Source: Escherichia coli (GTDB lineage Bacteria > Pseudomonadota > Gammaproteobacteria > Enterobacterales > Enterobacteriaceae). From it: DNA of 64,000 nucleotides. The stretch is taken from assembly GCF_003334385.1 (NCBI RefSeq), contig NZ_QOWN01000014.1. One strand, given 5' to 3'. A model generated the notes under the pieces. The model did no database searches. It saw only the letters and a program-made list of their open reading frames with translations, and was not told where the DNA came from. A program made the position numbers and the translations under genes. This document shows positions 7,560 through 8,685 of this stretch, piece after piece; the first letter of the stretch is position 1; every line of letters begins with the position of its first letter.

Positions 7560-7960
7560 ATTTTTCCCTAAATAGTCAGTATGTTGAAACTTTTTATTGT
7601 GAGATTTGTTGCAAAAACCATCTGACCATAACGCCAGCTGCCGGGGAAAGGAAGGATTATCTGCGGTTTTTGTGATGAAAAGCAGGATGATTATATTTAA
7701 CCCAGTAAATACGTTCCTGTCTTTTTTTGTATAAAAAATGTTTATTACTCGATGTAAGGATACATTAATTTTACGTTTATTATGATGAATCCTCTGCAAA
7801 TGAGCGAAATTTGAAAGAACATTTATCTGCTGTACGATTTAATGAACTTAATGATACAGCATTACAAAAACAATCGAAGTTTATAAAGATGATTCCTGAT
7901 TGACCAGAACCCTATCCTACAATGGTGACTAATTTTATTACTCCCGATGGAGATGATGAT

Positions 7961-8347
7961 ATGAATATATCATATGTGAATAGCAACAAAACGACATCTT
8001 TACCTGTTGAGCTAGATGCACTAAATAATAAAGATACCTCTTATGCCAAAGATTTTTCTTATGCTAAAGATTTCTTTTTATACATAGAAACACAGTTAAA
8101 AATTGCAAAAGATTTTTGTAGACCTGGAGAAGAAGTATCAAGTTCTATTGCAAGTAAAGTTTTTCACGCATTTATTGATTTAGTTAACAAAATCAGGGGT
8201 AAGAAAGACTTTATGTATATTTGCACGCTTTGCTGTTTTGCCGAGGAGGTTAAAGGTGATTATTCTCATTACAGGACCTTTTTATTTGATATTGGTAATC
8301 AATATAAGGTTAAACTTACACAAAGCGGAAAAAATAGCTCTCTTTAA
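7961..8347 (+). CDS. hypothetical protein in AT-rich aphA-tyrB spacer (yjbS locus); start uncertain (alternative ATG at 7922)
   Basis: Open frame in a markedly AT-rich segment; GGAG 8 nt upstream of ATG 7961; contains a tandem 18-bp repeat encoding SYAKDF-SYAKDF; no recognisable domain. Confidence 0.3.
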   Translation: MNISYVNSNKTTSLPVELDALNNKDTSYAKDFSYAKDFFLYIETQLKIAKDFCRPGEEVSSSIASKVFHAFIDLVNKIRGKKDFMYICTLCCFAEEVKGDYSHYRTFLFDIGNQYKVKLTQSGKNSSL

Positions 8348-8685
8348 CATTAGAATTTAACGATACTATAATTGAATCTCAGAAAGTCACAGGTAATAAG
8401 GCAAAGCATATTCTTGAGGATATAGAAATATTCTATCGTAACAAACCCGATACTTATTATTAAATTTAATAATGGTTAGATGTGCAGAAATTATTACTCC
8501 ACACGAAAAAATAGGGAAAGGAATTCCAGATAATTGGGATAAACTTAACAATAAAAGAACTGACAACGTTTTATTATCTCTCACGTAGAACAACGGCATC
8601 AAAAAAATCATCTACAAAGAAATAGTGAAAGCGACGACAGTTTAATTTCACTGCAGGCTGGGTAACTCCAGCCTGCTTTCCTGCA

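Follow-up and report, generated by a model that had tools for sequence, protein, structure and literature searches.

The 1125-bp spacer between aphA and tyrB (positions 7561-8685 of the window, that is, of the 64,000-nucleotide stretch of Escherichia coli chromosome analysed here) most likely consists of two parts: about 130 bp of DNA upstream of aphA, and an AT-rich insert of foreign DNA, about 1 kb long, that is confined to E. coli and carries one orphan gene, inactivated in this strain. We assign a probability of roughly 0.8 to this reading. The kind of locus is already well known and largely catalogued. The only new element is that the K-12 gene yjbS and the ORF of the window are different truncations of one 161/167-codon gene, whose intact form (denoted long yjbS in the following) is mislabelled in RefSeq. 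The coordinates of all features are collected in Table 1.

The composition of the spacer differs markedly from that of its surroundings. In 200-bp windows the G+C content is 0.28-0.32 over positions 7700-8600 versus 0.46-0.57 in the flanking genes, and the interval 7692-8650 has a G+C content of 30.1%, compared to 50.2% for the entire window. The sliding G+C values (~30% against ~50%) bear out the claim of an earlier note on this DNA that the intergenic stretch of about 1.1 kb is far more AT-rich than its neighbours. The interval ranks near the bottom of the 64 kb when G+C is taken over 1 kb. The minimum (0.31) is reached within a 526-aa ORF on the minus strand (24718-26298) with a high content of N, I, K, and F, and a further AT-rich site (about 0.34), the third, coincides with an intact 330-aa ORF, also on the minus strand (15685-16677). 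Close to the latter, K-12 presumably has two short adjacent genes, yjbL and yjbM, in its annotation; the K-12 version of the 330-aa ORF may again be split.

The extent of the insertion is given by comparison with Salmonella, whose tyrB-aphA gap comprises 186 bp. It aligns to window positions 7540-7691 and thereafter to the tyrB stop region only, without any homology in the Salmonella spacer to the DNA between position 7691 and the tyrB stop. Given this short spacer, the interval from 7692 to about 8651 is therefore an insertion relative to Salmonella. The preceding part (7561-7691) aligns with the Salmonella spacer as well as with B2 strains of E. coli, and 5 of its 131 sites segregate among 15 E. 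coli sequences with intact alleles. A different gap differs between the two species as well: the Salmonella enterica contig has, between yjbR and uvrA, a pair of small ORFs (112 and 147 aa, positions 6619-7387) that overlap and lack a Pfam match, whereas this gap has no gene in the E. coli annotations inspected.

Table 1. Features of the aphA-tyrB spacer, in coordinates of the window.
Feature	Position	Strand	Remarks
aphA	start codon ends 7560	-	bounds the spacer on one side
Conserved aphA upstream region (promoter and leader)	7561..7691	-	outside the putatively foreign segment
AT-rich segment, 30% G+C, found in E. coli only	7692..8651		from composition and comparison with Salmonella and B2 strains
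Shine-Dalgarno-like GGAG	7949..7952	+	precedes the ATG at 7961 by 8 nt
Truncated allele of the orphan gene long yjbS, 128 aa and stop	7961..8347	+	ATG shared with K-12 yjbS
18-bp tandem repeat, about 2.3-2.5 units (KDTSYA-KDFSYA-KDF)	8030..8074	+	KDxSYA register
Frameshift site GCGG-AAAAAA-TAGC	8325..8338	+	A-run at 8329-8334
Out-of-frame remainder of the gene, then original stop	8329..8463	+	codons for residues 124-167, 95% identity
Non-coding tail, AT-rich and highly variable	8464..8651		43 of 183 sites segregating, 1-3-bp indels
Perfect 9-bp G+C-rich hairpin GCAGGCTGG-GTAACT-CCAGCCTGC	8652..8675		directly past the tyrB stop, read from the sequence
tyrB	stop at 8686	-	bounds the spacer on the other side

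The segment contains few recognisable elements other than the gene. No further conserved ORF, boundary repeat, tRNA-like sequence, or integrase remnant was found within 7692-8651, and an Rfam search of positions 7300-8900 returned nothing. Two candidate ORFs, 8472-8588 (plus strand, 38 aa) and 8387-8611 (minus strand), were rejected as genes, as both are broken by 1-3-bp indels between strains. Adjacent to the segment, the hairpin following tyrB is probably the terminator of this gene, judging from its sequence; B2 strains and Salmonella carry hairpins of other sequence at this place. The hairpin was not called by the terminator scan because it is not followed by a T-run, and the calls of the promoter and terminator scan were no better than those on shuffled sequence. 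Among the 21 spacers aligned, four divergent alleles share 16 additional bp ahead of the ORF (at window position 7879), which are missing in the rest, including the window.

The gene is represented in the window by an ORF that the earlier note had located at 7961..8347 or, in a longer reading, at 7922..8347 (141 aa). The ORF is indeed present; when the segment was shuffled 2000 times, only two of the shuffles yielded an ATG-initiated ORF of at least 128 aa. In K-12 (BW25113), yjbS is annotated at this site on the same strand, as had likewise been claimed for the site, and both its ATG (7961) and its frame are identical to those of the window ORF. With respect to the start codon, position 7961 is better supported than 7922, which was rejected. 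The GGAG motif preceding the former is retained in an alignment of five strains (alignment A1), with O157 reading AAGGAG, and the RefSeq protein WP_001339137.1 of the near-identical strain FCI51 starts at this ATG. The start at 7922 has no ribosome-binding site, and the four substitutions within its 13-codon extension, inspected by eye in the same alignment, all change the amino acid.

The ORF includes a tandem duplication, described earlier as a perfect 18-bp repeat (8039..8074) that encodes SYAKDF twice. The duplication and the repeated peptide hold, but the perfection does not extend to the DNA level: the two units, TCTTATGCCAAAGATTTT and TCTTATGCTAAAGATTTC, are equal at 16 of 18 bases, the two differences (GCC/GCT and TTT/TTC) being synonymous. 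A match of 16/18 was reached in none of 5000 shuffles. An additional AKDF is encoded at 8104-8117. A comparison of copy number across strains, suggested in the same context, gives either two units or one; alleles differ by 18 bp in three deletion registers, always in frame.

The copy number of the repeat also sets the length of the intact gene, which encodes 161 or 167 aa for one or two units, respectively. In strain CFSAN004176 and many others the 167-codon frame is uninterrupted and ends with ...RNKPDTYY. The earlier note had made its reading depend on conservation of the frame in related genomes; the frame is conserved, and among 21 distinct sequences, 16 have it open over 161/167 aa. The intact protein (167 aa, UniProt A0A1M0STK9; cluster P0001 with 2144 member sequences) matches the window product at 98% identity over the shared 125-128 residues and is found in the same genomic context, but in contrast to the window allele its gene is read through to the C-terminal end. 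A tblastn search of the window with the 167-aa protein gives two matches: residues 1-124 fall at 7961-8332, and residues 124-167 lie in another frame at 8329-8460. Since the match is split over two frames, the window carries a frameshifted copy of a longer gene. The site of the shift is one base shorter than in intact alleles, which read AAAAAAAGAG or AAAAAATGAG, with the consequence of a stop codon at 8345-8347. On this comparison, the window ORF is best described as a frameshifted, truncated allele rather than a complete gene.

The disrupted alleles differ in their lesions. The window allele has two 18-bp units, is intact at position 8118, and is broken solely at the A-run, resulting in 128 aa. 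In K-12, the allele has a single unit; its frame is ended after 67 aa by the loss of 1 bp at window position 8118 (TTTTTGTAG to TTTTTTAG), and a second shift is found at the A-run, which is reduced from A7 to A6. The allele of O157:H7 has one unit and a 10-bp deletion, resulting in 119 aa. The K-12 protein YjbS (67 aa, WP_001321562.1) shares with the window product the locus, the strand, the ATG, and, apart from the repeat unit, the first ~46 residues; unlike the window product (128 aa), it diverges after residue 46 through a frameshift of its own. From these alignments, K-12 yjbS is a remnant of the same gene that arose independently and contains two frameshifts, and the O157 allele represents a third lesion.

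We counted these alleles in 5426 complete E. coli genomes using diagnostic queries that span each lesion. The segment is present in 4379 of the genomes and absent from 1047 (about a fifth). The one-base deletion of K-12 occurs in 1525 genomes, the 10-bp deletion of O157 in 309, and the exact window allele in 162. For the remaining allele classes, an evenly spaced sample of 13 loci was inspected, and 12 of these have the intact 161/167-aa frame. By subtraction, and based on these 13 sampled loci, about 40% of complete genomes probably hold an intact gene.

The distribution of alleles also bears on the question whether the locus is phase-variable, such that slippage at the A-run switches the gene, the 18-bp repeat tunes the protein, and the window allele corresponds to the off phase. 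A frameshift has occurred at or beside the same A-run at least twice (the change from A7 to A6 in K-12 and the 1-bp loss in the window), and at least three registers are seen among the changes in copy number of the 18-bp unit, which occurred on different allele backgrounds; both would suit a contingency locus. We nonetheless consider a switch highly improbable. The run comprises at most 7 A, which is short for efficient switching, and it is interrupted in many intact alleles (AAAAAAT, AAAAGAT). The disrupted alleles are fixed in the large sets of genomes given above and are not scattered among near-identical strains, the K-12 frame would need two independent reversions, and a mere change in run length does not account for all differences between the window allele and the closest of the intact sequences sampled. 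The A-run is better regarded as a mutational weak point than as a demonstrated switch.

It can also be asked whether the ORF is a gene at all, or whether the spacer is non-coding, H-NS-coated promoter-island DNA in which the open frame is a by-product of composition. The latter would agree with the disruption of the frame in several lineages, with the description of the K-12 spacer as transcriptionally defective promoter-island DNA (PMC3661553), and with the absence of homologue, domain, and fold matches detailed below. Stop codons are, however, frequent in AT-rich DNA: the probability of a 167-codon open frame arising by chance at 30% G+C is about 5e-7, and the frame stays open among intact alleles that differ at up to ~13% of residues. 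For 15 distinct intact alleles, the pooled pN/pS in the annotated frame is 0.42, the lowest of the six frames (0.55-1.39 in the other five), and segregating sites number 15, 25, and 34 at the first, second, and third codon position, respectively. Indels within intact ORFs are confined to in-frame 18-bp events, whereas the non-coding flanks have indels of 1, 2, 3, and 16 bp; the lack of frameshifts is partly circular, as the intact class was chosen for its open frame. Together with a GGAG well spaced from the start, these data make a non-coding origin of the frame distinctly unlikely. The constraint itself is weak, which again would fit non-coding DNA. The flanking genes have a pN/pS of 0.06 (aphA) and 0.10 (tyrB) at the same loci, and for the most similar pairs of intact alleles the value exceeds 1. 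The intact alleles are under weak, frame-specific purifying selection.

We note that the orphan gene (7961-8464) is also more divergent than aphA (6846-7560) and tyrB (8686-9879). Among E. coli alleles dS reaches 0.19, versus up to 0.044 for aphA and up to 0.10 for tyrB. Its synonymous divergence is about 2-5 times that of aphA, and 23% of the sites in the tail (8468-8650) segregate. Possible reasons for the excess are an older coalescence, recombination, or a higher mutation rate.

The 167-aa protein has no significant match in Pfam, NCBIfam, PHROGs, or PADLOC, and both a word-indexed search and an exhaustive HMMER search, the latter of 1.84 billion representative proteins, retrieved E. coli alleles and fragments only. 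A structure model of moderate confidence (mean pLDDT 63, pTM 0.54) has no significant neighbour among solved or predicted folds. The intact protein is predicted to be soluble, with a helical N-terminal half and a C-terminal half consisting of a four-stranded sheet and a helix. The window allele lacks residues 126-167, including the best-predicted strands and the C-terminal helix. Given that these elements of the model are lost, the 128-aa product would be non-functional. Our best guess for the intact protein is a non-enzymatic cytoplasmic accessory protein without function in this strain.

The segment appears to be confined to one species. In a search of one genome each from 100,044 species, no true carrier was found outside E. 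coli. The single match, attributed to Flavobacterium paronense CECT 8460 (NZ_JAUFQN010000013.1, tig00000241), is K-12-like E. coli contamination. The 9.5-kb contig in question has the order aphA-yjbS-tyrB and the K-12 lesions in addition to scattered 1-bp errors, and its assembly serves as the representative of the species. A search for a closer outgroup by way of AphA clusters gave only contigs of the Salmonella type or of E. coli. No match to the segment was found in phages or in true plasmids. Most of the carriers listed as plasmids in PLSDB are chromosome-sized or very large records (1.0-4.9 Mb, and one of 373 kb), probably misfiled or chimeric rather than mobile copies; the same probably applies to a 17-kb 'plasmid' of Klebsiella oxytoca (NZ_CP069917.1), a suspected fragment with the K-12 allele. 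The suggestion of the earlier note that the composition indicates an old horizontally acquired remnant gains support from the 186-bp spacer of Salmonella, the lack of a carrier among the representatives of other species, the patchy occurrence within E. coli with another island at the junction in the B2 strains examined, and the H-NS-bound promoter island of K-12 (PMC3661553). We found neither an identifiable donor in phages and plasmids nor a mobility gene, the latter including integrase, tRNA, and flanking repeats.

The same junction has a second, unrelated occupant. In both B2 strains examined (E2348/69 and an ST131 strain) a 13.8-kb island is located between aphA and tyrB, whose genes encode a sensor kinase, a sigma-54 regulator, and a second set of 2-oxoglutarate dehydrogenase and succinyl-CoA synthetase. 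According to Cai et al. 2013 (PMC3694859), the insertion site of this KguS/KguR island (c5032-c5041) lies between tyrB and aphA. As an alpha-ketoglutarate utilisation island of B2/UPEC strains it resembles the yjbS segment in its position, extending from the aphA upstream region to the tyrB stop, and differs from it in size (13.8 kb, 9 genes in the ST131 annotation) and in having a known function. The island replaces the yjbS segment and is not inserted beside it; since the two have no sequence similarity, they are alternative occupants of one site.

A junction at which islands come and go (PMC3694859) raises the possibility that the yjbS segment is itself the last scrap of a larger island, either a mobile element or a multi-gene cassette, from which the partners of the ORF have been deleted. 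The highly variable tail and the insertion sequences at the junction would be in line with such a history: IS1, IS3, and IS150 are found in or beside the spacer in several E. coli strains, and an IS1-associated deletion is known from strain SL124 (positions 2181-3614 of its locus), in which an IS1 stands in place of the 5' part of aphA and almost the entire yjbS segment. We regard this origin as very unlikely, as the spacer has the same extent (1097-1141 bp) in all 21 alleles compared. Moreover, no remnant of partner genes or of mobility functions was found in the segment, as listed above, and its sequence resembles neither that of the kgu island nor those of phages and true plasmids.

The preferred reading, a foreign segment with one inactivated orphan gene, agrees with published work on K-12, in which the tyrB/yjbS spacer is one of 78 promoter islands and is itself marked as bound by H-NS and tied to a predicted foreign gene (Panyukov and Ozoline 2013, PMC3661553). 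The H-NS binding derives from ChIP-chip in K-12 only (PMC3661553). The K-12 spacer is 96% identical to that of the window, and its tyrB-yjbS sequence is read as intergenic in that work (PMC3661553); from the strain comparison, part of this DNA may instead be the decayed 3' part of a gene. In a transposon study yjbS was classified as 'essential only by TraDIS' (PMC5821084). The call may reflect a low density of insertions in AT-rich, H-NS-bound DNA rather than function, an interpretation that is ours and absent from the cited paper. IS1 insertions in yjbS are recurrent in evolution experiments (PMC4999529). No functional, expression, or protein study of any yjbS allele was found in the literature searched.

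From these data we infer the following course of events. The segment would have been acquired horizontally, and H-NS would keep it transcriptionally silent, as published for K-12. The gene would have decayed repeatedly, by small indels, slippage at the A-run among them, because it is presumably dispensable under most conditions, and the 18-bp unit could be gained and lost by replication slippage without harm. In the lineage of the window, loss of 1 bp at the A-run (8329-8334) has led to the stop after 128 aa and thereby to the loss of the predicted C-terminal sheet and helix.

A more speculative interpretation considers intact long yjbS as a young, E. coli-restricted gene of de novo origin in AT-rich DNA, or one diverged beyond recognition, that is selected in the ~40% of strains holding it and has been repeatedly lost (in K-12, O157, and the lineage of this strain) or swapped for the kgu island upon a change of niche. 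Such a history is unlikely on present evidence. If true, it would make long yjbS a tractable case of the birth and death of an orphan gene, in the bacterium that has been studied best.

The truncation of the K-12 gene has consequences for annotation. In five RefSeq/PGAP records with an intact allele (one at 1902-2405), the 161/167-codon ORF is called a 'frameshifted' pseudogene over its first 205-223 bp, and some records with an intact allele add a separate 83-aa protein in the same frame (WP_000275035.1). The intact alleles are mislabelled because the truncated K-12 YjbS apparently serves as the reference protein. The practical value of our analysis is hence a small annotation correction for 'protein YjbS', and it does not change the understanding of any pathway. 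For the biology of E. coli, the locus constitutes a small and clean example of an H-NS-bound, AT-rich orphan gene that decays independently in several lineages, as well as an example of two unrelated inserts at one chromosomal junction.
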